From: Bacteroidales bacterium
GTDB lineage: Bacteria > Bacteroidota > Bacteroidia > Bacteroidales > ML635J-15
NCBI GenBank assembly: GCA_017617125.1
Contig: JAFZWY010000008.1
Location: 153,858 to 217,857 of the forward strand
DNA: 64,000 nucleotides
Direction: 5' to 3'
Of the stretch, positions 690 through 16,705 are shown piece by piece. Position numbers and translations under genes: made by a program. The notes beneath the pieces were generated by a model. The model saw nothing but the letters and a program-made list of their open reading frames with translations. It did no database searches and was not told the origin of the DNA. The first letter of the stretch is position 1. Every line of letters begins with the position of its first letter.

Positions 690-1529
690 ATGTCAGAAAA
701 GAAAAAACATAAGTTTTGGAGGTGGCTTACAAGGCCTTACCAGTTTGTGATATATCGCGAAGGTAATTTCGAGGTGCTGAAGAAGTTCCACATGAACAAG
801 ATCATATTTTCGCTAGTCATTGTGGCTATGTTTGTGATTTTCTTCGCGATTATTTCTGCTCTGGTGGTATATACGCCGCTTAAGTACCTCGTGCCGGGAT
901 ATCCCGATCACAAGACTTTGGAACAGATACGCGAAAATGCAATACGTGTCGACAGCCTGTCGACGGAGCTCGATGCGCGCGAGGAATATCTGAATATGAT
1001 CCGCGACATTATTTTTTCGGAAGTTCCAATCGATTCCGACTTCGCAGTTCCAGTTGCAAACCTTACCGAGGAGCAGATTCGCGAGTTCAACGACCCCACA
1101 AAGCCGCGACAGCGCTACGACGAGTCGGAGAATGTGAACGTGGTAAACAAGAATGACATTGTGCCGAATCTTTTTGTGCCGCTTAAAGGCATGATTGTTA
1201 ATGGATTCGACAAGACTAAGAGGCATTTCGGTGTCGATATTGCACCGACGTCGGACGATGCGGTGTTTGCCGTCCTGCAAGGCATTGTGATTGAAAGCAA
1301 CTATACTATCGAAAACGGCTATTCCATAATCTTGCAGCATCCGAGAGGCATCATTTCTGTGTATAAGCATTGCGCAAGTCCGATGGTTAAGGAAGGACAG
1401 AAGGTTCGCCAGGGAGAACAGATTGCCTTGTATGGAAATTCGGGTGAAAACACAAGCGGACCGCACCTGCATTTCGAACTGTGGCAGAACGGAGAGCCGC
1501 TTAATCCAAAGGATTATATTGAATTTTAA
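690..1529 (+). CDS. M23 family metallopeptidase with N-terminal membrane anchor
   Basis: HFGVD, YKH and GPHLHFE zinc-binding motifs; N-terminal TM segment; sits upstream of dxr as is common in Bacteroidota. Confidence 0.9.
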   Translation: MSEKKKHKFWRWLTRPYQFVIYREGNFEVLKKFHMNKIIFSLVIVAMFVIFFAIISALVVYTPLKYLVPGYPDHKTLEQIRENAIRVDSLSTELDAREEYLNMIRDIIFSEVPIDSDFAVPVANLTEEQIREFNDPTKPRQRYDESENVNVVNKNDIVPNLFVPLKGMIVNGFDKTKRHFGVDIAPTSDDAVFAVLQGIVIESNYTIENGYSIILQHPRGIISVYKHCASPMVKEGQKVRQGEQIALYGNSGENTSGPHLHFELWQNGEPLNPKDYIEF

Positions 1530-2704
1530 TGGAAAAGAAAGTAAAAAATATAGCAATTCTCGGTTCTACCGGCTCAATAGGAACTCAAGCTCTCGACATT
1601 ATACGCGACTATCCCGACAAGTTCTCGGCTGAGGTGCTTGTCGCCAATAACAATGCGCAGTTGCTTATTGCACAGGCACGCGAGTTCGAGCCCAATTTTG
1701 TGGTGATTGCCAACAAGGAGAAATATCCCGAAGTGCGCGATGCTCTTGCCGACTTGCCTATAAAGGTTTACGCTGGCTCGGAATCCATTCTCGATGTCGT
1801 AGTGATGGACTGTGTCGATATGGTTTTGGCGGCAATGGTTGGATTTGCTGGACTTCTGCCGACAATAAAGGCTATCGAGGCTGGGAAGGTGGTTGCTTTG
1901 GCAAACAAGGAGACGCTTGTGGTTGGCGGCAAGATTATATGCGACAAGCTGAAGGAAAGCGCCACGTCGTGTGTTTTGCCTGTCGATTCGGAGCACTCGG
2001 CAATTTTCCAGTGCCTGCGTGGCGAAAATATCGATGATGTTGAGAAACTGATTCTTACAGCATCGGGCGGACCGTTTTTCGGGAAAGATGTTGAGTTCTT
2101 GAAAAATGTTACAGCCGAGCAAGCGTTGAATCATCCCAACTGGAAGATGGGCAGCAAGGTTACAATCGATTCGGCATCGCTGATGAACAAGGGTTTTGAG
2201 GTTATCGAGGCGCATTGGTTGTTTGGTATTCCTGCCAACAGGATAGAGGTGCTTGTGCATCGTCAGTCGATAGTGCATTCTATGGTTGAGTTTTCCGATG
2301 CGTCGATAAAGGCGCAGATAGGTGCACCGAGCATGCGAATTCCTATTCAATATGCTTTCGACTATCCAAACAGGTCGTATTCGCCCAAGAATCGTTTTTC
2401 GTTTCTCGAACACGGATGCAATCTTACATTCGAAAAACCTGATACCAAAACGTTCCGCTGTTTGCAAATCGCCTACGATTGCATGTTGAAAGGTGGAAAT
2501 GCACCGTGCATAATGAATGCCGCCAACGAAATAGCCGTTGATGCCTTCCTAAAAGGCCGTATTGGTTTTATGCAAATTCCGGAAATAATAGAGTCTACCC
2601 TTGAAAAATTGCCTTTCGAGAGCAAAATTTCCATTGAATCGTGCTTTGCAACTGACAAGGAGGCTAGGCGAGTGGCCGAAGATCTTGTTGCATTTAATAG
2701 ATAA
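1529..2704 (+). CDS. dxr: 1-deoxy-D-xylulose-5-phosphate reductoisomerase
   Basis: GSTGSIG, LANKE, PVDSEH, TASGGPF, HPNWKMG and NKGFEVIEAH motifs. Confidence 0.97.
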   Translation: MEKKVKNIAILGSTGSIGTQALDIIRDYPDKFSAEVLVANNNAQLLIAQAREFEPNFVVIANKEKYPEVRDALADLPIKVYAGSESILDVVVMDCVDMVLAAMVGFAGLLPTIKAIEAGKVVALANKETLVVGGKIICDKLKESATSCVLPVDSEHSAIFQCLRGENIDDVEKLILTASGGPFFGKDVEFLKNVTAEQALNHPNWKMGSKVTIDSASLMNKGFEVIEAHWLFGIPANRIEVLVHRQSIVHSMVEFSDASIKAQIGAPSMRIPIQYAFDYPNRSYSPKNRFSFLEHGCNLTFEKPDTKTFRCLQIAYDCMLKGGNAPCIMNAANEIAVDAFLKGRIGFMQIPEIIESTLEKLPFESKISIESCFATDKEARRVAEDLVAFNR

Positions 2705-2796
2705 TGCAAAATAGCATTTAATAACCCCCTTTTTTATAAGTTATAAATCTGTATCTTATTAGTAATAAATAAGTTGAGTGTAATTGTATTAAAAAG

Positions 2797-2884
2797 ATTC
2801 CGCTGAAATCTATATTGAATATTAGCGGAATGTGTGTTTTAAAGTATAGATTCCGCTGAAATTTGAAAAATATTTTGGCGGAAT
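2797..2884. repeat. Direct repeat copy 1 (two ATTCCGCT-N19-(A/G)GCGGAAT palindromes) upstream of the ATPase gene
   Basis: 80/88 identical to 4358-4445 by manual alignment. Confidence 0.92.
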
Positions 2885-2927
2885 GTTGAAAAATATTTTT
2901 ACCTTTGTGGCATAAAATAGAATTAGT

Positions 2928-4346
2928 ATGAATGCAATGATTGTCGGTCGAGAGTTGGAATTGAGACAGTTGGCTCGTTACTACGGGTCCAAACAGTCGG
3001 AATTTGTAGCAGTTTATGGTCGTCGCAGGGTTGGAAAAACCTTTTTGGTCAGGAATGCTTTCCGGAAAATTGATTTCCAGTATGCAGCAATGATGAATGC
3101 TTCTAGACGCGAACAGCTGGTCGGATTTGCCAATGCTTTGCGAGAACAAGGTCTTGCCGATGTCGCCGAAATTGCATCGTGGCAGGAGGCTTTTGGCGAA
3201 CTGAAAAGACTAATAGTTGCCTTGCCAAAGTCACGCAAAAAAGTCATTTTCCTTGACGAACTGCCTTGGATGGACAAAACTGATGCAGTTTTTATGTCTG
3301 CGTTCGAGCATTTCTGGAACAGTTGGGCATCGGCACGCAAGGACATTATGCTTGTAGTTTGTGGTTCTGCCACATCGTGGATGATGGACAAGCTGATAAA
3401 CAACCGCGGAGGTCTGCACAACCGAATCACATTGCACATACGTCTCGAACCGTTCACGCTCAAGGAAACAGAACTTTATCTGAAATCACGGAAATTCCGC
3501 TGGGGGCGGGCGATGATTGCCGAATGTTACATGATTTTCGGTGGCGTGCCATATTATTTAAGTCTGCTTGACCCAGCTATGAGTCTTGCAAAAAATGTAG
3601 ATTTCCTATTCTTTAGGCAGAACGCCATACTCCGAGGTGAGTTCAACAACCTTTATGCGTCGCTGTTTACAAATTCCAAGTTGTATATAGGTATTGTTGA
3701 ACTGCTTGGAACAAAGAAAAAAGGTCTTTCGCGTGACGAGATTGTCAAAGGGTTGAAGTTGGCTGATGGAGGAACATTCACGAAGGCTTTGGCTGACTTG
3801 GAAAACTGTGGTTTCATTCGTTGCTATACGCCATTTGACAAGAAAAAGAAGACCGCTTTGTTCCAACTGGTTGATTTTTACACATTGTTTTACTTGAATT
3901 TCATTTGGGAGCGCAAGATTAACGAAGAAGAATTCTGGTCGAAAAATATGCGGTCTTCATTGCGCAATGCTTGGATTGGGTATGCGTTTGAACAACTATG
4001 TCTGGCGCATGTAAGGCAGATAAAGCAAGGACTGGGCATTTCGGGAGTAATCACAAATGTATATTCGTGGCGCAGTAACAAACAAGATGGCGGTGCACAA
4101 ATCGACCTTGTCATTGACAGGAACGACAATTCCATAACGCTATGTGAGATGAAATGGACGAACAAACCTTATTCTATAACTGCCGCCTACGAGAAAAATC
4201 TCAACAACAAGGTTGAAACTTTCATTGAAGAAAACGAAACTGGCAAGTCTGTATTTCTTACAATGGTAACTATGCAGGGTGTTTTACCTAATTCTCATTC
4301 TCAAATTTTAGATAATAATTTGATATTAAACGATTTATTTGTATAA
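2928..4346 (+). CDS. AAA-family ATP-binding protein with wHTH-like middle region and C-terminal PD-(D/E)XK-like domain (ATPase_2/DUF234-like)
   Basis: Walker A GRRRVGKT, Walker B IFLDE, VCGSA, GGVPYYL, and C-terminal QIDLVI...LCEMKW. Confidence 0.85.
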   Translation: MNAMIVGRELELRQLARYYGSKQSEFVAVYGRRRVGKTFLVRNAFRKIDFQYAAMMNASRREQLVGFANALREQGLADVAEIASWQEAFGELKRLIVALPKSRKKVIFLDELPWMDKTDAVFMSAFEHFWNSWASARKDIMLVVCGSATSWMMDKLINNRGGLHNRITLHIRLEPFTLKETELYLKSRKFRWGRAMIAECYMIFGGVPYYLSLLDPAMSLAKNVDFLFFRQNAILRGEFNNLYASLFTNSKLYIGIVELLGTKKKGLSRDEIVKGLKLADGGTFTKALADLENCGFIRCYTPFDKKKKTALFQLVDFYTLFYLNFIWERKINEEEFWSKNMRSSLRNAWIGYAFEQLCLAHVRQIKQGLGISGVITNVYSWRSNKQDGGAQIDLVIDRNDNSITLCEMKWTNKPYSITAAYEKNLNNKVETFIEENETGKSVFLTMVTMQGVLPNSHSQILDNNLILNDLFV

Positions 4347-4357
4347 TATTAAAAAAG

Positions 4358-4445
4358 ATTCCGCTGAAATTCATATTGAATATCAGCGGAATGTATGTTT
4401 GGAAATATAGATTCCGCTGAAATATGAAAAATATTTTGGCGGAAT
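4358..4445. repeat. Direct repeat copy 2, just after the ATPase stop codon
   Basis: Same palindrome pair and the same 53-bp spacing as 2797-2884. Confidence 0.92.
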
Positions 4446-4457
4446 ATTTAGTTGCTG

Positions 4458-4952
4458 TTATTCGAAAAACTCTTCCGACCAGCCGTGTCCCAAATCCCAA
4501 TGTACATCTACTACAAAATCGAAATCTGACGGTAGATTGAATTCATCCTCAAGGGTTTCGCGAAACTTCTCTATGTCAATGCTATTAAGCCAGTGACCGA
4601 CGTAAACTTGGAATTTGCCGTCTGCTTCGTTTTGGAAAATTCTGCCACGCGGTATCATTGTGTAGTTGCTTTCAGTATAGAATATTGACGAAGTGTCTCC
4701 TTTTGCTGTAGCGCGATGATGCTGCTTTTGCCAATAGGTTTTGTGCAATTTGTTGATAGTGGCTTTTCCGTTTATGAAAATAGCTTTGTCGGCATCTGTT
4801 TTTTCAACTCCGAACAAAGAATTGTCAGCAATGTCGTACCAGAAAATGCCAACCTTTGGTTTCCCATTGTCCATAAATCCAGACATGATTTCGATGAGTT
4901 CATCATGTTCTTGTTCGTCAGTGTGTTTTATGCCTTTATCGTCAGTAGTCAT
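4458..4952 (-). CDS. Hypothetical protein (164 aa)
   Basis: ATG-started ORF with protein-like composition (VGIFWYD, HKTYW, IPRGRIF, HWDLGHGW); TAATTTTG box upstream. Confidence 0.7.
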   Translation of the reverse strand: MTTDDKGIKHTDEQEHDELIEIMSGFMDNGKPKVGIFWYDIADNSLFGVEKTDADKAIFINGKATINKLHKTYWQKQHHRATAKGDTSSIFYTESNYTMIPRGRIFQNEADGKFQVYVGHWLNSIDIEKFRETLEDEFNLPSDFDFVVDVHWDLGHGWSEEFFE

Positions 4953-5003
4953 TTTGAATGGAAATAATCTTTTGCAAAATTAGCAAAAAGTATGATACGG
5001 CAA

Positions 5004-5033
5004 CAAAAAAAGCCGCAATTACGCGGCTTTTTT
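5004..5033. terminator. Intrinsic terminator downstream of glyA
   Basis: AAAAAAAAGCCGC-AATTAC-GCGGCTTTTTT hairpin with A and T tails. Confidence 0.8.
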
Positions 5034-5051
5034 ATTGTGATTTTCAATTTT

Positions 5052-6332
5052 CTACCATGCGAAAAGCGGGTAGTTTGCCATCATCTTGTTAACTTCGGCA
5101 CGAACCTCAGCGATAACGGTTTCGTTTTCAGGATCGCAGAGAACGCGGTCGATAAGGTCAACGATAACAGCCATCTTGTCTTCCTTTACGCCACGGGTTG
5201 TGATAGCCGGGGTTCCGAAACGCAAACCTGAGGTCTGGAATGGGCTGCGGGTATCGAAAGGAACCATGTTCTTGTTGGTAGTAATGTCGGCAGCAACAAG
5301 AGCCTTTTCAGCAACCTTACCGGTGAGTTCCGGGAACTTGGTGCGGAGGTCAACAAGCATAGAGTGGTTGTCGGTTCCGCCGCTGACGATCTTGTAACCC
5401 TTTGCCATGAAAGCATCAGCCAAAGCAGCAGCATTCTTCTTAACCTGCTTCTGGTATTCCTTGAATTCTGGAGTGAGAGCCTCGCCGAAAGCAACAGCCT
5501 TAGCAGCGATAACGTGCTCCAATGGACCGCCCTGGCAGCCTGGGAATACTGCAGAGTCGAGCAATGCCGACATCATCTTTACTTCGCCCTTTGGAGTCTT
5601 CTTGCCCCAAGGATTCGGGAAGTCCTGGCCCATCATGATGACACCGCCACGAGGACCACGGAGGGTCTTGTGAGTAGTTGTAGTTACGATGTGAGCATAC
5701 TTAACTGGGTTTTCGAGCAAGCCGGCAGCGATAAGACCTGCAGGGTGCGACATATCAACCATAAAGATTGCACCGATTTCGTCGGCAACCTTGCGGATGC
5801 GAGCGTAATCCCATTCGCGGCTGTAAGCAGAAGCACCAGCGATGATGAGTTTCGGCTTGTTTTCGCGTGCAACGCGTTCGAGCTGGTCGTAATCGACGCG
5901 ACCGTCGCTTTCCTTTACGTTGTATTCCAATGCCTTGTAGTTGATACCCGACATATTTACTGGTGAACCGTGTGAAAGGTGTCCGCCGTGTGCGAGGTTA
6001 AGACCGAGGAAGGTGTCGCCAACATTGAGGCATGCAAGGAAAACAGCCATGTTTGCCTGTGCGCCCGAGTGTGGCTGTACGTTTGCCCAGCAAGCGCCGA
6101 AGATCTTTTTCAGTCTTTCGATAGCGAGGGTTTCGCTCTGGTCAACAACTTCGCAACCACCATAGTAACGCTTTCCTGGATAACCTTCAGCGTACTTGTT
6201 TGTCATTACCGAACCCATAGCTTCCATTACCTGGTCGCTAACAAAGTTTTCCGATGCGATGAGCTCGATGCCCTTCATCTGTCTTTCTCTTTCCTTCTTT
6301 ATAAGGTCGAAAATTTGTTCATCTCTAACCAT
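5052..6332 (-). CDS. glyA: Serine hydroxymethyltransferase
   Basis: [29 protein letters not shown] and [13 protein letters not shown] motifs. Confidence 0.98.
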
Positions 6333-6590
6333 GATATTTTATTTTAATATGTGTTTTAAAAATTTTCGGCAAATGTAATAATTATTTGTCACATCGCAGA
6401 TTAGTTTTCTTATTGTTTTTCAACATAGATGGAGTGGGTGAGAAATGTTTTATTCCAACAATTTCAAAAGCCAGATTCGTAGAAGTTGCATATCAATAAA
6501 AACGTTATGCAACCGAAGCTGGGGCAGAAGAGTGCCTGATATTGCTAATTGTTTGAATTATAGTAAATTGGGTTTGTTAAGCTTCTTTCA

Positions 6591-6640
6591 AAAACGGAAT
6601 AAGTGGTAATTTTTGCCCTTAAAAAAATGGAATAAGTGGT
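6591..6640. repeat. Pair of 17-bp direct repeats, 33 bp apart
   Basis: AAAACGGAATAAGTGGT (6591-6607) and AAAATGGAATAAGTGGT (6624-6640). Confidence 0.75.
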
Positions 6641-6847
6641 TTTTTGTTTTGCAAAATGTCACTAAATAATAATGTAATTGGCGACGTCATCGAGATGTAT
6701 AGATTGGGGGCGTATGTTATTGCAGCAAAAAAGATATATAATTGTTTAAAAGTAAAAGAAGCGAAAAGTTGTACTCGTAATAGAAAGTGTGTATTTTTGT
6801 ACCCTAAATAATTACTACTTAATCCGGGATATATAAGTGCTAATTTT

Positions 6848-8923
6848 ATGAACGAACGCTTTTTCTATCGAAATTCCATACGAGATTTTCTTCTACAAAA
6901 TGAACTTGAAATATTTGGTATCATAGCTGGAAATGATGAGTATGATACAGGGGATACGCAAAAGATTGCATGGAAAGAGGAAATAAAGCTTTTAAAGAAG
7001 GTGTTAGCATCATATAAAAGCGAAGATGGCTGGGTAATTTTTGAATATACAATACCACGTTTAGGAAAGAGAATAGATGTAGTGGTTTTGCTGCGAGAGC
7101 GAGTGTTCATTCTTGAATTTAAGGTTGGTGAAATGAATTTTAACCATCAAGATGTAGATCAAGTGATGGATTATGCTCTTGATTTGAAGAATTTTCATCA
7201 AGGTAGTGCTGATAGATTCATTGTCCCTATTTTGGTTGCAACTGTCAGTAAGGATTCTTCTGCAGAACTTAAGTTGTCGCATTATAATGATGGCATATAT
7301 GAACCATTAAGGACAAATTCTGAAGGATTGTCAAGCGTCGTAAAAATGGTTCTAGAACAAGACATTCCGGAATATGCAGGCGATGTTCCGATGAGAGACT
7401 GGGTAAAGAGTCGATATGCTCCTACGCCAACTATCATAGAAGCTGCAAGTGCATTATATTCACAACATAGTGTCGATGAGATAACTCGTCATGAAGCAGA
7501 GGGAGAACAATTGGATAGGACAACAGAATATGTTCTGAAAGTTATTCACGAAACGAAATTACGTGGAGGAAAAAGTATTTGCTTTGTGACGGGAGTTCCG
7601 GGGGCTGGAAAAACATTGGTAGGTTTAAACGTAGCTATTAAACAATTGTCGCATGAAGAAGGGGAGAAGCCTGATTTGGCAGTATACTTGTCTGGGAACG
7701 GACCTTTGGTAAGTGTGTTGACAGAGGCTTTGGCTAGAGATCGTAAGCGACAGAAAAACGAACAAGGAGAAAAATATAACATAACTGATGCTCGTCGAGA
7801 AGTAGGTCAATTTATACAAATAATTCACCGATATCGTGATAATATGCTTCAGAAATTGCGCACACCAATCGTTGGGAAAAAGATAGAAATTGATCCGCAA
7901 AAAGAACTTAAAGATAAAACGGCTGGATATGCAGAAGTGGAAAATATTGCCATTTTTGATGAGGCACAACGTTCATGGGATCAAGAGCATATTTCGAGTT
8001 GGCTAAAGCGTAAGAAGGGAATACAGGATTTCCCAATGTCAGAAGGAGAATTCCTGATATGGTCTTTGGACCAAAGAAAGGATTGGGCAGTAATAGTTTG
8101 TCTTGTTGGAGGCGGACAGGAAATAAATACTGGAGAAGCTGGCATTGGCGAATGGATTAGATCAATGAATGAAACCTTCCCAGAATGGCGAGTATATATA
8201 TCTAATCAACTAACGGCAAAAGAATATGCAGAAGGTAAGATTGAAGAGTTGCTCTCTAAAAATCCTAATGTATTATATTCAGAAGATTTGCATTTAGCCG
8301 TTTCTATGCGTTCTTTTAGAGCTGAGAGTTTGTCGAATATGATACACCATTTGTTGGATTGTGAGATTAACAAAGTTATAGAAAATTATGCAAAAATTAA
8401 AGATCGCTATCCCATTGTATTAACAAGGGATATTAATGTTGCAAAACAGTGGTTGAGGAACAAAGCAAGGGGTAGTGAACGATACGGAATGTTAGTTTCT
8501 TCAAAAGCATATAGATTGAAACCGTTAGCCATAGATGTAAGGTGTAAGCCAGATACTGTACATTGGTTTCTTGATGATATTGATGATGTGCGTTCATCAT
8601 TATTTTTAGAAGATGCTGCAAGTGAATTTGATATTCAAGGATTGGAACTAGATTGGACATGTTTGGTCTGGGATGGCGATTTACGATATAATGATGGAAA
8701 ATGGGAATTTTATGAGTTTAATGGTGGTAATCGATGGAATCGTATAAATAAAGAAGAACGAAAACTTTATCAGCTGAATGCATACAGAGTTCTTCTTACC
8801 CGTGCTCGTCAAGGAATGGTAATTTGTGTTCCTGAAGGAAATAATGATGACAATACAAGAAAATCTGAATTTTACGATGGAACGTATATGTATCTAAAGT
8901 CAATAGGTTTAGAAGAAATTTAA
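6848..8923 (+). CDS. DUF2075-type (Schlafen group 3-like) helicase with N-terminal PD-(D/E)XK-like nuclease
   Basis: RIDVVVL...ILEFK nuclease motif; GVPGAGKT Walker A; IFDEAQ Walker B; QGLELD and YRVLLTRAR helicase motifs; AT-rich DNA. Confidence 0.82.
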   Translation: MNERFFYRNSIRDFLLQNELEIFGIIAGNDEYDTGDTQKIAWKEEIKLLKKVLASYKSEDGWVIFEYTIPRLGKRIDVVVLLRERVFILEFKVGEMNFNHQDVDQVMDYALDLKNFHQGSADRFIVPILVATVSKDSSAELKLSHYNDGIYEPLRTNSEGLSSVVKMVLEQDIPEYAGDVPMRDWVKSRYAPTPTIIEAASALYSQHSVDEITRHEAEGEQLDRTTEYVLKVIHETKLRGGKSICFVTGVPGAGKTLVGLNVAIKQLSHEEGEKPDLAVYLSGNGPLVSVLTEALARDRKRQKNEQGEKYNITDARREVGQFIQIIHRYRDNMLQKLRTPIVGKKIEIDPQKELKDKTAGYAEVENIAIFDEAQRSWDQEHISSWLKRKKGIQDFPMSEGEFLIWSLDQRKDWAVIVCLVGGGQEINTGEAGIGEWIRSMNETFPEWRVYISNQLTAKEYAEGKIEELLSKNPNVLYSEDLHLAVSMRSFRAESLSNMIHHLLDCEINKVIENYAKIKDRYPIVLTRDINVAKQWLRNKARGSERYGMLVSSKAYRLKPLAIDVRCKPDTVHWFLDDIDDVRSSLFLEDAASEFDIQGLELDWTCLVWDGDLRYNDGKWEFYEFNGGNRWNRINKEERKLYQLNAYRVLLTRARQGMVICVPEGNNDDNTRKSEFYDGTYMYLKSIGLEEI

Positions 8924-8934
8924 CAATTTATATC

Positions 8935-9192
8935 ATGGATAATAAGTATTCTGATTTGTGGAGTTTTATCGCAACTAATCTTCCTAATTATAGTTCGCGC
9001 GATGACGTTTTAAGAAGTGATATTTTGTTTCGATTTCTTAACAATGAAGATGTTGATGAATCTGACAAACAATGGATAAAACAAGAATTTGGGAATGATA
9101 TTAATTTAATTAAACAGGAATGCTTTCGGTTTGATCTAAAATTTCTTTCAGAATCATTAGAGTCGTACTATTCACGTCTAGCACAGATATAA
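8935..9192 (+). CDS. Hypothetical protein (85 aa)
   Basis: ORF fits tightly between the helicase (11-bp gap) and the Nudix gene (1-bp gap). Confidence 0.7.
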   Translation: MDNKYSDLWSFIATNLPNYSSRDDVLRSDILFRFLNNEDVDESDKQWIKQEFGNDINLIKQECFRFDLKFLSESLESYYSRLAQI

Positions 9193-9193
9193 A

Positions 9194-9589
9194 ATGGTAG
9201 TTGTAGCAGCCATTATTCATGATAATAACAATCTAATTTTCGCAACTCAACGTGGTAACGGAGATTGGAAGGATTGGTGGGAATTCCCTGGCGGAAAAAT
9301 TGAAGCAGGAGAAACTCCAGAAGTTGCTTTAAAACGAGAGATTTTGGAGGAATTGGATACAAAAATTGCCGTTGAAAGATTTATTGATACAGTAGAATGG
9401 GATTATCCTAAATTTCATTTGACAATGCATTGTTATTGGTGTGAAGTTGTCGAGGGAGATTTATCATTATTGGAACATGAAGCTGCACGATGGCTTTCAT
9501 TTGAACAACTATATAGCGTAAAATGGTTGCCTGCCGATGAGGTTGTTATAGATAAACTAAAAGCTCAACTATCAGCAATTTCCGAATAG
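9194..9589 (+). CDS. Nudix hydrolase, MutT/NudG-like (d)NTP pyrophosphohydrolase
   Basis: Nudix box WEFPGGKIEAGETPEVALKREILEEL; C-terminal WLPAD. Confidence 0.92.
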   Translation: MVVVAAIIHDNNNLIFATQRGNGDWKDWWEFPGGKIEAGETPEVALKREILEELDTKIAVERFIDTVEWDYPKFHLTMHCYWCEVVEGDLSLLEHEAARWLSFEQLYSVKWLPADEVVIDKLKAQLSAISE

Positions 9590-9611
9590 TTCAATCATTT
9601 TTTTTCTCGTC

Positions 9612-9679
9612 CCAAATCACATTTTCCCCCAAAGCAATAGGTTTTCAAATTCGAATGCGGGGTGGAAAATAAATGGAGA
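9612..9679. repeat. ~70-bp upstream element, copy 1 (before fic)
   Basis: CCAAATCACATT...AAAGCAATAG...TGCGGGGTGGAAAATAAATGGAGA, shared with 10856-10925. Confidence 0.85.
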
Positions 9680-9747
9680 GCTATTTATGAAATATTATGT
9701 ATTTTTGTGCGATAAAAATGCCGATCCTGTAGCGATAAATAAATTGT

Positions 9748-10785
9748 ATGACTAATGAGAATAGAAACATATTGCTAAAATTGCTTGAGCAACATCAAGA
9801 GTCGGGCATGTCGGAGCAGATAGACTACAACAAATTCTATTTGTATTCCATTATCACGCATTCTACGGCTATAGAAGGCTCAACAGTAACTGAAGTCGAA
9901 GCTATTTTGCTTTTCGACGAAGGCATTACAAGTAGCAAGCGCACAGTGGTCGAGCAGATGATGAACCTTGATTTAAAGGCAGCATACGAATATGGGATGC
10001 AATGGATTGTGCGTCACGAACCAATTACGGTCGAATGGCTTGTCCTGCTTGCATCAAAAGTTATGGCTCGCACCGGTAGTGAGTATCATTCTGCAAGTGG
10101 AGACTTTTCTGCTGCAAAAGGTGAGTTGCGCAAACTGAATGTTACTGCAGGATTTGGCGGCAAGTCGTATATGTCGTATCAGAAAGTGCCAGCTCGTCTT
10201 GAAGCTTTTTGCGAAGAATTGAACAGACGGAGAAAGGCAATTGACGTGTCGGATGTGAGTGCTATATACGATCTTAGTTTCTGGGCTCATTACGAATTGG
10301 TGACCATTCATCCGTGGGCAGATGGAAATGGCAGGATGAGTCGTCTGCTTATGAATCTGCTCCAGATTGAGTTTGGTGTTTTGCCTACCAAAGTGTTAAA
10401 AGAAGACAAGGAGGCATACATACAAGCACTAGTGGATACTCGCGAAAACGACGACATAAATATTTTTCTCGATTGTATGGCTCGCCTTCACATTGCTCAT
10501 CTTCAGAGCGATATAAAGCAATACGAGGTGGCTTTGCAAGATGAAGTGGACAGGAAAGGTGGACAGAAAAAGCAAAAGGTGGACAGAAAAAGTGGACAGA
10601 AAACACGTGATGCCATTATCGCTCTCATTTCTAGCAATCCGCACATTACTACCGCCCAAATGTCTGAGTCGCTTGGAATCAACCGAAGTGCACTTTCAAA
10701 GCATATCAAGCGTATGCAGGAAGACGGTATCATCCGTCGTGTAGGACCCGACAAAGGCGGTTTCTGGGAGGTGATTAGCGATTGA
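9748..10785 (+). CDS. Fic family protein with C-terminal winged HTH
   Basis: Fic motif HPWADGNGRMSR; inhibitory-helix-like HSTAIEGS; C-terminal HTH ending RVGPDKGGFWEV. Confidence 0.92.
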   Translation: MTNENRNILLKLLEQHQESGMSEQIDYNKFYLYSIITHSTAIEGSTVTEVEAILLFDEGITSSKRTVVEQMMNLDLKAAYEYGMQWIVRHEPITVEWLVLLASKVMARTGSEYHSASGDFSAAKGELRKLNVTAGFGGKSYMSYQKVPARLEAFCEELNRRRKAIDVSDVSAIYDLSFWAHYELVTIHPWADGNGRMSRLLMNLLQIEFGVLPTKVLKEDKEAYIQALVDTRENDDINIFLDCMARLHIAHLQSDIKQYEVALQDEVDRKGGQKKQKVDRKSGQKTRDAIIALISSNPHITTAQMSESLGINRSALSKHIKRMQEDGIIRRVGPDKGGFWEVISD

Positions 10786-10855
10786 TGTATCATTGATCCG
10801 CAAGCACAAAGCATTGCACCGCGAGTGTAATTTTTTGAATCCTTCAAATTTTCAT

Positions 10856-10925
10856 CCAAATCACATTCCCGCCTAAAGCAATAGTTTTTTGCAATTTCGA
10901 TTGCGGGGTGGAAAATAAATGGAGA
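10856..10925. repeat. ~70-bp upstream element, copy 2 (before the RhuM-family gene)
   Basis: Last 24 bp identical to the 9612-9679 copy. Confidence 0.85.
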
Positions 10926-10969
10926 AAATCGGTGGAATTTTTGTATCTTTGTGAGCAAAATAGGAAGTT

Positions 10970-12037
10970 ATGACACTGCACGAAATACAAACTCGCAAGG
11001 AAGACCTAGGAGAATCGCCAAAAGAGAAGTCTATGATGATACGAAATAGTACGGCAGAATTTCTGATATTCCAGGCACAAAATCAAGCAGATGGAGTGGA
11101 AGTGTTTTATCGTGATGAAACAGTTTGGTTGACACAAAAGTCCATGGCGTTGTTGTTTGATGTGGATAGGACTGTGATTACAAAGCATTTGAAAAATGTT
11201 TTTGATTCTGGAGAATTGCAACAAGAATCAGTATGTGCAAATTTTGCACATACTGCTAATGACGGCAAGACATATTCAACTAATTTCTATAATCTTGATG
11301 CCGTCATTTCCGTTGGTTATCGTGTGAATTCCACCCGCGCTACGCAATTCCGCCAGTGGGCAACGGCTGTGCTTCGGCAATTCGCAATCAGAGGCTATGT
11401 GTTGGACAAGAAAAGACTGGAAAACGGGGCGTTCTTGTCGGAAGACTACTTTGAACATCTGTTGGCTGAAATTCGGGAAATTCGCCTTAGCGAGCGACGG
11501 ATGTACCAAAAGGTGACAGACCTTTATGCAACAGCTGTTGACTATAATAAGGAGGCTCCAACTACACGCCAATTCTTTGCAAAGGTCCAAAACAAATTGC
11601 ATTATGCCATTCATGGACATACCGCTGCAGAACTGATTTTTGAACGAGCCAATTCAGAAAAGGAACACATGGGATTGACAACATGGGAAAATGCGCCAGA
11701 TGGCAAAATTGTTAAGACCGATGTTTCTATTGCAAAGAATTATTTGAAAGGACAAGAACTTGAAAGTCTAGGAAGAATCGTGAATGCTTTCCTGGATCTT
11801 GCAGAGGATCGTGCAAAGCGTCACATACCAATGACAATGGAAGATTGGGCAAAATACATAGACCGTTTCTTGATGATGGATGACCGTAAATTGTTGCAAG
11901 GCAATGGAAAAATATCAGCCGAAGAAGCAAAAACGTTTGCTGAATCGGAATTCGAGAAATATCGCATTGTACAAGACCGCTTGTTTATGTCTGATTTTGA
12001 TAAGGAAATAGAAGGTCTATTGGGAGAAAAGGAGTAA
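10970..12037 (+). CDS. Virulence RhuM family protein
   Basis: ETVWLTQKSMALLF, YNLDAVISVGYRVNS, ATQFRQWA, EIREIRLSERR and VQNKLHYA motifs. Confidence 0.9.
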   Translation: MTLHEIQTRKEDLGESPKEKSMMIRNSTAEFLIFQAQNQADGVEVFYRDETVWLTQKSMALLFDVDRTVITKHLKNVFDSGELQQESVCANFAHTANDGKTYSTNFYNLDAVISVGYRVNSTRATQFRQWATAVLRQFAIRGYVLDKKRLENGAFLSEDYFEHLLAEIREIRLSERRMYQKVTDLYATAVDYNKEAPTTRQFFAKVQNKLHYAIHGHTAAELIFERANSEKEHMGLTTWENAPDGKIVKTDVSIAKNYLKGQELESLGRIVNAFLDLAEDRAKRHIPMTMEDWAKYIDRFLMMDDRKLLQGNGKISAEEAKTFAESEFEKYRIVQDRLFMSDFDKEIEGLLGEKE

Positions 12038-12122
12038 AATTGCCAATAAAAACAAAAATCCAAAATCGTAAATCTAAAATCGTAAATAATATTGTATCTT
12101 TGCACACCAAAATTGATTTACG

Positions 12123-14555
12123 ATGAAGATTTCATACAACTGGCTTAAGAATTATGTGGCGTTCGACGAATCGCCAGAGGAATTGGCAAAAATATTGACA
12201 AGTGTTGGACTCGAAGTTGATGGTACTGAAGAAGTTTCGTCAGTAATCGGCGGACTCAAGGGATTTGTAATCGGCGAGGTTTTGACCTGCGAGGCTCACC
12301 CGAATTCCGACCATCTGCACGTTACAACTGTCAATGTCGGTGGCGAAGAACCGCTGCATATTGTCTGCGGTGCTCCAAATGTTGCTGCCGGACAGAAGGT
12401 CGTAGTGGCAACCATAGGCACTAAGATTTACGCCAAGGACGGTGTGTTCGAAATCAAGAAGTCGAAACTGCGCGGCGAACCGTCGGAAGGTATGATTTGC
12501 GCCGAGGACGAGATGAACATCGGCACTTCGCACGACGGAATTATGGTTCTGTCAGCCGACGCCAAGGTGGGTACGCCCGCTTCGGAGTATTTCAAGGTAG
12601 AAAACGACACCGCTATCGAAATCGACATTACTCCAAACCGTATCGATGGTGCTTCGCACATTGGTGCCGCCCGCGATGTGGCTGCCGTAAAGGGTATAAA
12701 ATACAATATCCCCAAGGCCGAAATCACCGAGAATCCAAAGAATGAAATCAAAATCGACATCAAGATAGAAAATACCGAGGCTTGCCGCCGCTATATGGGC
12801 ATCTGCCTTACTGACGTGAAGGTGCAGGAATCGCCCGAATGGCTGAAGAACCGCCTGAAATCGGTCGGCTTGAACCCAATAAACAATATCGTGGATGTCA
12901 GCAATTTCGTATTGTACGAAACTGGAAATCCGCTTCATACATTCGATGCTGACAAGATTGCCGGCAAGCAGATAATCGTGAAGAATGTCGCCGAGGGAAC
13001 TCCATTTGTTACTCTCGATGGCGTTGAGCGCAAGCTTTCGGCCCACGACCTTATGATTTGCAATGCCGAGGAGCCAATGTGCATCGGCGGTGTGTTCGGC
13101 GGTCAGAAGTCGGGCATTTCGAACGAAACAAAGAATGTTTTCATTGAGGCTGCATATTTCAGCCCTGTTTCTATCCGCAAGACTTCCAAGTTCCACGGCT
13201 TGAAGACCGACGCTTCGTTCCATTTCGAGCGCGGAGTTGACATCAACATGGTGCCTTACGCATTGCGCCGTGCCGCAAGCCTGATTGTGGAGATGGGCTG
13301 CGGTCGTATCGCTTCCGAAATTACCGATGTGTATCCAAATCCAATCGAACCGGCAATAGTAGATTACAATATCGACCGTGGCAATGCGCTCATCGGCAAG
13401 GAAATTCCCGAAGCCCGCGTGCGCGAAATCATCGGTTTGCTCGATATGAAGATTCTCGAGGACAAGGGTCGTGACCTGAAGCTCGAAATTCCAACCTACA
13501 GGGTCGATGTAACCGGCGAAGCCGACGTGGTTGAGGACATCATGAGAATCTACGGCTACAACAACATCGAGGTTCCAAACCATATTTCGTTCAGCATCAA
13601 CTACCCCGAAAAGCCGGAACCGCAGAAGATGATGAACCTTGTTTCGGACGTGCTCACAGGCATGGGCTACACCGAAATAATGTGCCTCTCGATGATTTCT
13701 GCAGATGACATTGCAGAGAACAGCGAATATGCAAACCGCATCGTGAAGATTTACAATCCGTTGAGCCGCGAACTGAACGTTATGCGTCCGTCGCTGCTTT
13801 ATGGCGGACTCAACAGCATAAAGGCAAACCTGAACTACAAGAACGGCGACCTAAAGTTCTTCGAATTCGGCCGTACCTATTATTATAATGCCGAGAAGCA
13901 GATTTCCGACATCACCGCATACAGCGAAACACAGTACATCGGAATGTGGATTACAGGCAAGCGCAATCCGCTGAGCTGGAACCTGAAGGACAATCCTACC
14001 GACTACTTCATGCTGAAGTCGGGAGTGGCTGCAGTGCTCAAGAAAATTGGCATTGACATGTCGGCATTGAAGTTCGAGGTTTCGTCGGACGAAAAGTTCA
14101 GCACTTTCCAGTCGTTCAAGCTGAAGGACAAGGAAGTTGCCCGCATCGCCGTTGTTTCGAAGGCCTTGCTCAAGAAGATGGACATCGACCAGGATGTTTT
14201 CTATGCCGAAATCAACTGGGATGTGCTTCTGAAGTTCGCCAAGACTCACAAGATAGAGTACCAGCCGATTTCGAAGTTCCCGCGCGTACGCCGCGACCTC
14301 GCTTTGCTCATCGACAAGTCGGTAACCTACGCACAGCTCGAGGAAGTTGCTCGCAGAACCGAGCCTAAGCATATTGTCGAGGTTGGTCTGTTCGATGTTT
14401 ACGAAGGCAAGAACCTGGAGCCGGGCAAGATTTCGTATGCTTTGAGTTTCGAACTCGAGGACACCGAAAAGACGATGACCGACAAGCAAATCGACAAGAT
14501 CATGCAGAAGCTCATAATGTTCTATGAGAAGGAACTTGGCGCCAAGGTAAGGTAG
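12123..14555 (+). CDS. pheT: Phenylalanine--tRNA ligase beta subunit
   Basis: MKISYNWL start, HPNSDHL, IVCGAPNV, ITPNRID, FERGVD and C-terminal anticodon-binding FPRVRRDLALL. Confidence 0.97.
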   Translation: MKISYNWLKNYVAFDESPEELAKILTSVGLEVDGTEEVSSVIGGLKGFVIGEVLTCEAHPNSDHLHVTTVNVGGEEPLHIVCGAPNVAAGQKVVVATIGTKIYAKDGVFEIKKSKLRGEPSEGMICAEDEMNIGTSHDGIMVLSADAKVGTPASEYFKVENDTAIEIDITPNRIDGASHIGAARDVAAVKGIKYNIPKAEITENPKNEIKIDIKIENTEACRRYMGICLTDVKVQESPEWLKNRLKSVGLNPINNIVDVSNFVLYETGNPLHTFDADKIAGKQIIVKNVAEGTPFVTLDGVERKLSAHDLMICNAEEPMCIGGVFGGQKSGISNETKNVFIEAAYFSPVSIRKTSKFHGLKTDASFHFERGVDINMVPYALRRAASLIVEMGCGRIASEITDVYPNPIEPAIVDYNIDRGNALIGKEIPEARVREIIGLLDMKILEDKGRDLKLEIPTYRVDVTGEADVVEDIMRIYGYNNIEVPNHISFSINYPEKPEPQKMMNLVSDVLTGMGYTEIMCLSMISADDIAENSEYANRIVKIYNPLSRELNVMRPSLLYGGLNSIKANLNYKNGDLKFFEFGRTYYYNAEKQISDITAYSETQYIGMWITGKRNPLSWNLKDNPTDYFMLKSGVAAVLKKIGIDMSALKFEVSSDEKFSTFQSFKLKDKEVARIAVVSKALLKKMDIDQDVFYAEINWDVLLKFAKTHKIEYQPISKFPRVRRDLALLIDKSVTYAQLEEVARRTEPKHIVEVGLFDVYEGKNLEPGKISYALSFELEDTEKTMTDKQIDKIMQKLIMFYEKELGAKVR

Positions 14556-14705
14556 TTTCTGCACCTTGTGCGTAAAGCATTGCATTGAATATTTTTACTT
14601 TTTGTGTTGAAAATAGGGCTAATCATCTGATATATACAAGTGTATATCGGCGATTGCCTGTGAAAAAATATTGGTCAAAATTTTTTCTAGTTGACAAAAA
14701 AGATA

Positions 14706-14713
14706 TACCTTTG
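14706..14713 (+). promoter_or_regulatory. -7 promoter box of rho (long 5' leader follows)
   Basis: TACCTTTG matches TAnnTTTG, ~160 bp upstream of the ATG. Confidence 0.55.
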
Positions 14714-14875
14714 CCAGCGATTGATAAGTAATCAATTCGTTTCTGAAGATTAAAAATCACAATAGAAATAATTTCACGGCCGCTTGTAGGGTTTGAAAGT
14801 TGTTACTTATTTGATTGATACATTACCCCTGAGGGGAAAAAACAAAATTACGATTAAATTTTATAACATTTAATA

Positions 14876-16705
14876 ATGAAGAGTTATTCAGAATTGAACG
14901 ACAAATTGCTGCCCGAACTTAGAGAGTATGCAAAAGGCTTGGGTATCAAAAGAGTTGAAGCATTTAGGAAACAGGATTTGATAAGGAAGATAATGGATGC
15001 TGAGGATCCTGACTTTGAAGAAGATATTGATGACGATGATGATCTCCTTGTTGGAGTTACCGATATAATGGCTCCTTTGCCAGAAAGAAACACACGTTCT
15101 CGCGAAATCGAAGACGATGATGATGACGAAAAGGATTCGGAAGATGGCGCAGATGATAATTCGCAGCCCAGAAGGCGTCAGCGCAGGGCAAGGATTCAGT
15201 CGCCAATAATGACTACACATTTGGATGAAACCGGTGTCGGTGCAAAACTGGTATTCAACAATCAGGAGAACCAGAGAGTCCAGAAGATGAATGCCGAGCC
15301 AGTCGCAAGAGTGTCGGGCGATTCGGTTTCGAAGGTAGAGACTATAAATTTCCAGCAGAATAATAGTGGCGGCTATCAGCAGAACCGTCAGCAGGACAAC
15401 AGGAAGCCTTTCCAGCGTTTCGACCAGCAGCGCAACAACCAGCCGCGCAACGAAAACAATAACAATGGCGGTCAGCAGGCTCAGCCACGCCAGCAGCAGT
15501 TGCCACTCGACAACGACAACCATCAGCAGGCAAATGCTCCGCAGGCTCAGCCAGTAGAGGAACCAAAGCCAAATTACGACTTCTCGGGAATAGTTACCGT
15601 AACAGGTGTACTCGAAATAATGCCCGAAAACTACGGTTTCCTCCGTTCGTCGGATTACCATTACCTGAATTCTCCCGATGACGTATATGTTTCGCAGTCG
15701 CAGATAAAGCTTTTCGGTCTCAAGACCGGCGATACCATCGAAGGTTCGGTTCGTCCGCCAAAGGAAGGTGAGAAATTCTTCCCGTTGACTAAGATCATAA
15801 GCATAAATGGTTTGGATCCGGCATTGGTTCGCGACAGAATTCCGTTCGACCACCTTACACCGTTATTCCCGACCGAAAAGTTCAACATTACCGGCAAAGG
15901 TCATGCAACGCTTTCGACCAGGGTTGTCGATTTGTTCACTCCTATAGGAAAAGGTCAGCGTGGTCTTATAGTTGCTCAGCCTAAGACTGGTAAGACTGTC
16001 TTGCTTCAGGAAATTGCAAATGCAATAGCAGCAAACCACCCCGAAGTTTACCTTATCATATTGCTTATCGACGAACGTCCCGAGGAAGTTACCGACATGG
16101 CACGTAACGTAAACGCAGAAGTTATCGCTTCTACTTTCGACGAACCTGCAGAACGCCACGTAAAGGTTGCAAGCATAGTTCTCGAAAAGGCAAAACGTAT
16201 GGTGGAATGCGGTCACGATGTGGTTATTCTGCTCGACTCCATCACTCGTCTCGCCCGTGCATACAACACCGTTGCTCCTGCTTCGGGTAGGGTTTTGTCG
16301 GGTGGTGTCGACTCCAACGCACTTCACAAGCCAAAACGTTTCTTCGGCGCTGCTCGTAACATCGAAAATGGCGGTTCGCTCACAATTCTTGCAACAGCAC
16401 TTACCGAAACCGGCTCCAAGATGGACGATGTGATTTTCGAGGAATTCAAGGGTACGGGCAACATGGAACTTCAGCTCGACCGCAAGCTCTCGAACCGCAG
16501 AATTTACCCTGCTGTGGATGTTACAGCTTCGAGTACACGTCGCGAGGATTTGCTTGTAAATCCAGACCTTGTAAACCGCCTGTGGGTAATGCGCGAGTTC
16601 CTTGCCGACATGAATTCGGTGGAGGCTATGGAGTTCATCCGCGCACGCCTGCCGCAAACCCCGACCAACGAGGAATTCCTCCTCACAATGGACAAGGGCT
16701 TATAA
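14876..16705 (+). CDS. rho: Transcription termination factor Rho with long acidic and Q/N-rich N-terminal insertion
   Basis: [55 protein letters not shown] and FKGTGNMEL motifs. Confidence 0.98.

Follow-up and report, generated by a model that had tools for sequence, protein, structure and literature searches.

Why should a single bacterial gene lie between two copies of the same array of palindromes, and what might its product have to do with them? This question is raised by a 64,000-nucleotide stretch of a Bacteroidales genome (GTDB lineage Bacteria; Bacteroidota; Bacteroidia; Bacteroidales; ML635J-15; GenBank assembly GCA_017617125.1, contig JAFZWY010000008.1, positions 153,858 to 217,857 of the forward strand), hereafter the window, in which a putative ATPase-nuclease gene (2928..4346, + strand, 472 amino acids) is enclosed by a direct repeat. 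A first-pass annotation of this DNA had suggested a single-gene mobile cassette. We favour another answer, to which we give a rough probability of 0.55: the repeats would be arrays of cognate sites to which the encoded protein binds through its winged helix, serving autorepression and perhaps looping, within a module that behaves as a unit.

The two repeats occupy 2791..2887 and 4352..4448, span 97 nt each and are 91% identical. Within them, 2797-2884 and 4358-4445 agree at 80 of 88 positions, and none of the 8 mismatches touches the four 8-bp arms (2797-2804, 2824-2831, 2850-2857 and 2877-2884). The arms form the palindrome ATTCCGCT-N19-RGCGGAAT, which begins at 2797, 2850, 4358 and 4411, the starts in each copy being 53 bp apart; six strand-matches of this pattern were observed, against none in 100 shuffles. 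Each repeat is thus an array of four half-sites that alternate in orientation with a period of 26-27 bp. The upstream array reads ATTCCGCT (2797-2804), AGCGGAAT (2824-2831), ATTCCGCT (2850-2857) and GGCGGAAT (2877-2884), and the downstream half-sites stand at 4358-4365, 4385-4392, 4411-4418 and 4438-4445. Realignment reproduced what the first-pass annotation had said of the repeat (its identity, the mismatches outside the arms and the 53-bp spacing), and the positions that it gave for the TACCTTTG promoter box (2900), the ATG (2928), the stop codon (4344-4346) and the 11-nt gap from the stop codon to 4358 are all correct. In the 2.88-Mb genome that holds the window, the ATTCCGC palindrome is confined to this locus, and the two-copy layout recurs in six other assemblies.

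As a side observation, the repeat unit reaches a few bases further left in several loci. In the window, 2780-2790 resembles 4338-4351; in the related locus L011, the repeat extends over 106 nt at 97% identity (878-983 against 2439-2544), and the DNA before the array looks like the end of the gene, with its last codons and stop codon. The same leftward extension is seen in L024. It could be the trace of a tandem duplication or of a circularly permuted history.

The encoded protein combines an AAA+ domain (residues ~1-235), a winged helix-turn-helix (residues 248-316; 3669..3875, + strand; secondary structure from the model) and a PD-(D/E)XK nuclease domain (residues ~340-472; 3945..4343, + strand). 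Pfam returned ATPase_2 (PF01637; 2.6e-16, 60.6 bits with a cut-off of 33.2) and DUF234 (PF03008; 8e-06, 26.6 bits with a cut-off of 22.5), and the PADLOC candidate PDC-S27 (PDLC04984) matched over its full length (3.4e-194, residues 4-471), which makes this a candidate phage-defence gene; a PDB sequence search gave no match at E <= 0.01, and an NCBIfam search gave none. The Walker A and Walker B motifs are intact, with G31, R32-R34, G36, K37, T38, D110 and E111 invariant among 47 sequences, and the nuclease residues E355, Q391, D393, E407 and K409 are invariant in an alignment of 47 homologues. The AlphaFold2 model (pLDDT 93.2, pTM 0.91) contains the AAA+ domain, the winged helix and a C-terminal alpha/beta domain. 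The closest solved structures are two archaeal ATPase_2 proteins, 2qen and 2fna; next come STAND proteins (Apaf-1, plant NLRs, MalT) and origin-bound Orc1/Cdc6. When the C-terminal domain was modelled alone (pLDDT 92.2), Foldseek placed it near NucS/EndoMS (8e-04), McrC (9.7e-04) and MspJI, with E about 1e-03. The architecture first proposed, an AAA ATPase joined to a winged helix and a PD-(D/E)XK domain, is therefore borne out by Pfam, the model and Foldseek. In the model, the recognition helix comprises residues 282-293, and D280 is its N-cap.

Arrays of this kind accompany the gene across its family. We assembled 80 homologous loci from genome contigs, where 122 of 131 candidate stretches proved to be relatives; 53 loci were non-redundant at 80% identity, 5 of them were dropped for short or N-containing upstream DNA, and 48 were analysed. 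An array was called from an exact, non-AT-rich 7-mer repeated in the 250 nt upstream of the gene. Most homologue loci carry alternating inverted arms upstream, ~26-27 bp apart (52-54 bp between arms of like orientation) and 3 to 14 in number. By this measure, 33 of the 48 loci have a 7-mer at least three times and 22 have one at least four times, compared with 156 and 24, respectively, of 958 control windows far from the gene; in 13 loci, none of 200 shuffles reached the observed count. On the upstream side, homologues do not generally lack flanking repeats, a possibility that had been named as one that would refute the first proposal. Over the 48 loci, the spacing of arms in the same orientation has its peaks at 51-56 and 104 nt, and that of arms in opposite orientation at 24-29 and 77-81 nt. 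The motif is densest upstream (16 per kb), sparser in the 150 nt downstream (3.8 per kb) and rare within the gene (0.21 per kb) and in the far flanks (0.28 per kb). One of the 13 zero-shuffle loci, L067, carries a plain 11-nt tandem repeat instead of an alternating array: a direct repeat of the AGTTACCTCAA type at -179 to -124, which is the source of the 11/22/33/44-nt same-orientation peaks and is separate from the GGCCGAAT-type palindromes of that locus.

The arrays are also exclusive to these genes. A scan of the 2.88-Mb genome for alternating 7-mer chains with at least three members found 8 arrays, and the only four with four members were the upstream and downstream arrays of its two family genes; a random genome matched in composition yielded three chains, all three-member. 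The second family gene, a paralogue on contig C35 with 45% identity, is flanked on both sides by AAGTTGCCA...TGGCAACTT palindromes with a 54-bp period. Between genomes, arrays are 85-90% identical and their cassettes (gene plus arrays) 82-88%, and nearby intergenic DNA is poorly conserved.

More distant relatives carry a simpler element. In three of four more distant DUF234 loci, one compact palindrome lies within ~125 nt upstream of the start (L167 2161-2185, L168 2726-2760, L169 467-499; arms of 12-17 nt, gap of 1 nt); one distant DUF234 locus that we compared is 26% identical to the query. These palindromes fit an ancestral autoregulatory operator. No phased arrays were found beside DUF234 matches in 121 genomes of the phylum, of which 6 had matches and added few new loci. 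At L007 (1240-1445; G000:C5), a paralogue with 22% identity and a stronger DUF234 match, TTAA-type repeats and palindromes lie upstream and are too AT-rich for our criteria.

The half-sites also differ from one gene copy to the next. Genome G029 has 10 paralogues and G009 has 8, all 42-49% identical to the query and no more than 58% identical to one another within G029, and each of these paralogues has a different arm sequence. Residue 280, at the head of the recognition helix, follows the type of half-site. It is D in 19 of 79 proteins, of which 15 have CCGC-type arms, none has GCCAAA-type arms and 4 are unclassifiable; it is another residue in 60, with 36 GCCAAA-type, 2 CCGC-type by a loose rule and 22 unclassifiable. 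In a tree built without the winged-helix columns, D280 arises at four separate places. The idea that the repeat might co-vary with the winged helix thus finds support among 79 proteins, with independent pairs too few for significance. Because the half-sites are private to each paralogue, co-vary with residue 280 and are absent elsewhere in the genome, the protein most likely recognises its own flanking arrays through the winged helix.

The position of the upstream array points to what this recognition may do. In the window, TACCTTTG (2900..2907, + strand), a promoter box of the Bacteroidetes -7 type, starts 15 nt beyond the last half-site, and the box is kept in 5 of the 6 orthologue loci compared; no promoter box follows the downstream array. 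Among 23 Bacteroidales loci, 16 have a TAnnTTTG box that lies 15-30 nt beyond the end of the last exact arm, and in three outlier loci with gaps of 69-73 nt an extra degenerate palindrome, read by eye, lies within the gap. Bacteroidetes promoters have the consensus TAnnTTTG at -7, plus a -33 element. If this consensus is right, the last half-site covers the -33 element, and since it stands at that expected position, its occupancy should repress the gene.

The downstream copy is more variable. A blastn comparison of upstream with downstream flanks gave a direct match in 26 of 65 loci, and the control comparison of upstream flank with gene body gave none in 65. Among the paralogues of G029 and G009, 16 of 18 have a downstream copy by blastn, and 12 of 18 have an exact arm in common; in L149, the downstream copy lies ~380 nt further on. 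Bracketing is the rule in the window's genus and a recurring minority elsewhere. Upstream and downstream copies are 81-97% identical within genomes, with a mean of 88% between genomes, which hints weakly at concerted evolution of the two. In L024, a long 6-nt tandem run of the AAAGTT/CAAAGT type follows the downstream palindrome (~2170-2290).

We propose the following mechanism on these grounds. Each array presents four half-sites in alternating orientation, ~26.5 bp apart, and this alternation places like-oriented sites every 53 bp on one face of the helix. One protomer would sit on each half-site, that is, on each 26-27-bp unit, and protomers would assemble cooperatively and in a nucleotide-dependent manner, by analogy with Orc1/Cdc6 and STAND proteins. 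Filling of the upstream array would then repress the gene from the promoter side, and the downstream array could serve as a second operator cluster, with the 1.5-kb gene looped out between the two, or as an insulator or roadblock. The two arrays, the promoter and the gene would together form a self-contained accessory module of PDC-S27, which may be gained, lost, inherited and exchanged as one unit. Because both arrays run in the same direction, they can recombine with each other, so that the gene is removed exactly and a single array remains. We regard this operator reading as the most economical. It also bears on an argument of the first-pass annotation, that a downstream copy is unnecessary for simple autoregulation; the argument is weak because cooperation of distant operator clusters by looping is well known. 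In phage lambda, for instance, CI bound at the OL and OR clusters cooperates through a 2.3-kb loop. The present locus shares with lambda CI two operator clusters a few kb apart and a single (here predicted) autoregulated protein, and the lambda case illustrates that a distant cluster can serve autoregulation; it differs in that the protein family is unrelated and the window clusters are direct repeats that bracket their own coding sequence.

Several observations weigh against this reading or against parts of it. By the exact-word criterion, 15 of the 48 loci have no array, and the spacers are about as conserved as the arms. For residue 280, an independent-pairs test found four pairs, about three in the same direction and none in the opposite one (p 0.125-0.5); four independent pairs are too few, so this test cannot reach significance. 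In a broad non-redundant set of 47 loci with both flanks, of which 35 have an upstream array, at least two copies of the 7-mer lie within 150 nt of the stop codon in 6 of 35, one in 4 and none in 25. Looping is a conjecture, and the palindromes, those of the downstream copy above all, may have a hairpin role, to judge from their single-strand folding. Operator function itself is inferred from sequence at each step. Since 25 of the 35 loci, outside the genus, have the upstream array alone and that array abuts the promoter, the primary role nevertheless looks like that of an operator. Two further features sit badly with a plain operator model, which leaves both unexplained: between closely related genomes, cassette homology runs exactly from one outer array edge to the other, amid differing neighbours, and some arrays occur as orphans.

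Both features emerge when the locus is compared among relatives. The ATTCCGC cassette was found in 7 of 57 genomes of the family searched (G000, G008, G010, G011, G022, G026 and G027), and all seven cassettes of this clade lie near glyA; G029 has one related palindrome, and four genomes gave unrelated single matches. In the window, dxr (1529-2704) is the left neighbour of the upstream array, and glyA (5052-6332, - strand) lies to the right of the cassette beyond a small open reading frame (ORF), orf164. Around the orthologous cassettes, we found three left flanks, namely dxr (window, L008, L009 and L013), rplI with a 195-aa ORF (L011 and L012) and a 717-aa ORF (L010), and three right flanks, namely orf164 followed by glyA, glyA directly (L008 and L012), and a ParE pair with orf164 and two ORFs (L009). 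The ParE pair of L009 (5538-6114) consists of a ParE-toxin-family ORF and a small upstream ORF between cassette and orf164. The orf164 gene itself (4458-4952, - strand) runs towards the ATPase gene, stops 10 nt short of the downstream array and has no match in Pfam, PADLOC or NCBIfam and no usable Atlas match; it is present in the window, L009, L010, L011, L013 and G029 and missing from L008 and L012.

Sites without the gene take two forms. In G025 and G002, dxr and glyA are 84-88 bp apart, with a shared terminator hairpin and no array. In G029, a single array (85-88% identity) with no gene lies between an L012-type left flank and an L013-type right flank; its last arm has decayed to GGTTGAAT, and the genome has no orthologue of the ATPase gene elsewhere, its 10 paralogues being those described above. 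A second orphan array lies in G029:C7 (L162 4889-4975), where four half-sites of the ATTTGGAG/CTCCAAAT type directly follow the stop codon of a paralogue that itself has TTCACCGAAAAA sites; a fumarase gene comes next. The orphan shares homology with the array that precedes a further paralogue, L149. The edge-to-edge pattern also returns when G029 is compared with G009, in two of three pairs of orthologous cassettes. Once the flanks are widened to 6 kb, the left sides of these pairs are syntenic with insertions, and the right sides are unrelated. In one G009 locus (L164 8701-9903), the conserved left flank is separated from the cassette by a PDDEXK_13 / REase-ARP nuclease gene and a 172-aa ORF, both of which are missing from the matching G029 interval.

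These boundaries are what keeps the idea of a mobile cassette alive. According to it, the arrays would be the cis-acting ends of a self-specified element, and the ATPase-nuclease would promote excision, integration or homing with no classical recombinase; put otherwise, a single-gene selfish or semi-selfish cassette would use its own ORC/STAND-like ATPase-nuclease to read the arrays and to cut, recombine or home. Since the operator model leaves the edge breakpoints and the orphan arrays unexplained, this idea stays a live rival, which we nevertheless consider unlikely. In its favour are the G029 array caught between two known flanks with no gene and no orthologue, the homology that stops at the outer array edges with three different flanks on either side, the same behaviour in two of the three G029-G009 pairs, and the second orphan array, of another paralogue's type, behind a different family gene. 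The nuclease catalytic residues are invariant, and the family was defined, in the available text of its source, from genes embedded in other defence operons. If true, the cassette idea would also explain why PDC-S27 genes occur inside defence operons and at synteny breakpoints.

The evidence on the other side is of several kinds. The sites of G025 and G002 hold the terminator alone, so this site can do without a resident array, and all seven cassettes of the clade have stayed by glyA. No genome holds near-identical copies (the maximum is the 58% of G029), unlike an actively copying element, and 25 of the 35 broad-set loci have no downstream array. Homologous recombination between 97-bp direct repeats would suffice to produce an orphan array. 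The first-pass annotation was right that the gene lies between dxr and glyA with no integrase or transposase nearby: a Pfam scan found no such domain among the ORFs of 690-16705, and the scanned flank ORFs of related loci contained no integrase, transposase or recombinase. As for the ~1.56-kb circle or repeat junction that it had foreseen, no go-back or repeat-to-repeat joint was seen in the assembled contigs of four public runs, in which rare forms are invisible; as contigs cannot show rare forms, we do not count this null result against excision. The joints that were seen had short sides of 23-41 nt in conserved ATPase motifs, and we read them as paralogues of other organisms. On one contig in X2, a variant downstream array is joined to the glyA terminator with no orf164, as in L008. 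Its cassette proposal has therefore fared unevenly: a single array without its gene and homology from edge to edge exist as it would predict, whereas empty sites free of any repeat, the missing junctions and the lack of identical copies do not suit it.

Less probable still, in our judgement, is that the arrays serve as a standby platform. They would hold an inactive ATPase-nuclease oligomer, which an infection-linked change in DNA or nucleotides would release or activate, and autoregulation would be secondary. The PADLOC match to PDC-S27 is in keeping with this, as is the STAND/ORC-like fold, whose relatives switch by nucleotide-driven oligomerisation, and the arrays bracket the protein's own gene alone. 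The neighbours are also suggestive. Past glyA lie a Schlafen group-3 helicase-like gene (6848-8923), a gene for a Fic/DOC protein with a winged helix (9748-10785) and a RhuM-family gene (10970-12037), followed by pheT and rho; the genes of 6848-12037, together with the ATPase gene, look like a small defence islet. However, no PDC-S27 member is known to protect against phage, and sequence does not separate a platform from plain autoregulation.

We think it quite improbable that the palindromes act as hairpins in single strands or RNA, that is, as terminators, insulators or sites of an unrelated host factor, instead of sites for this protein. Both array copies do fold far better than shuffles as single strands (z -5.3 to -9.7), and the downstream copy, which lies between convergent genes, folds into two long hairpins (-23 to -25 kcal/mol). 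However, the upstream array precedes the promoter box, convergent and divergent arm pairs have equal distances (18-21 nt), which a hairpin model does not need, and spacers are not self-complementary in many family members. The arm sequence also tracks a residue of the recognition-helix region, and the arrays are confined to the flanks of this gene family. Finally, chance similarity, assembly duplication and a generic dispersed repeat, of the repetitive extragenic palindromic (REP) or miniature inverted-repeat transposable element (MITE) kind, have the AT-rich context alone in their favour and can be set aside as practically negligible, chance because no shuffle matched, an assembly artefact because the six other assemblies share the two-copy layout, and a dispersed repeat because the genome holds no other copy.

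The operator reading gains shape from comparison with known systems. The window protein shares its AAA+, winged-helix and PD-(D/E)XK architecture with PDC-S27 / ATPase_2 + DUF234 (COG1672), whose profile it matches over its full length. In fold, it resembles Orc1/Cdc6 (2qby_B 7.3e-08, 2v1u_A 7.8e-07, 1w5t_C 2.6e-08 and 1fnn_A; E 1e-06 to 3e-08), although no Cdc6/ORC family was among the 7 Pfam families matched by the scan. Archaeal Orc1/Cdc6 proteins bind inverted ORB elements around AT-rich spacers beside the initiator's own gene, and the likeness extends to inverted sites around AT-rich spacers beside the gene for their binder, here a predicted one. Unlike Orc1/Cdc6, the window protein has an additional C-terminal nuclease, and its arrays stand on both sides of the gene and differ between paralogues; moreover, they bracket a single accessory gene that is missing from some relatives. 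The fold is likewise close to STAND proteins (6mfv_A 3.1e-09), including MalT (8bob_C 1.9e-07), which forms nucleotide-driven oligomers on repeated MalT boxes, and the window protein may work in the same mode. MalT, however, controls other genes, whereas the sites here flank only the protein's own gene, and a nuclease is present.

Two other systems share parts of the layout. In REP/RAYT pairs, as here, a single gene lies between cognate palindromes whose type follows the gene lineage, but the window protein has no HUH/Y1 transposase domain, and its palindromes are not dispersed in the genome. McrBC-type machines are AAA+ plus PD-(D/E)XK restriction enzymes that need two distant sites; the nuclease here resembles McrC (6hz4_N 9.7e-04), an AAA+ motor is combined with a DNA-binding module, and the site clusters are 1.5 kb apart. 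In contrast to McrBC, the present system, known from sequence, is a single polypeptide with a predicted sequence-specific winged helix in place of a modification reader, and its sites bracket its own gene.

The protein family itself is known but uncharacterised. Steczkiewicz et al. 2012 (PMC3424549) place DUF234 among the PD-(D/E)XK families, as one that is fused to an AAA+ ATPase, and PDC candidates are defined, in the accessible text of a preprint, as genes embedded in BREX, DISARM or type I restriction-modification systems (bioRxiv 10.1101/2024.01.29.577857). A 2026 NAR paper, which also gives a phylogeny, counts 4562 PDC-S27 genes in bacteria and 3503 in archaea and describes validation as pending for most PDC candidates, in its accessible portion (PMC12988326). 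Such texts on PDC-S27 / DUF234 describe the protein and its discovery, and in their available portions do not mention flanking arrays, private specificities or orphan arrays. Nor did we find the flanking array architecture in the available literature on DUF234, COG1672, DUF4143, PDC-S27 and guilt-by-embedding, supplements being outside this search. Arrays of phased palindromes that are private to each gene and often flank it on both sides thus appear to be undescribed.

For this family, the consequences are practical as well as biological. PDC-S27 genes are among the commonest unvalidated defence candidates, and the arrays give each gene copy a predicted DNA target that can be read from the genome, which offers a direct experimental handle. 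Where a genome carries 8-10 paralogues with private sites, as G009 and G029 do, nature has supplied a ready set of orthogonal protein-DNA pairs. Should the arrays also govern how the gene is gained and lost, they would represent a mechanism of mobility without a known recombinase.

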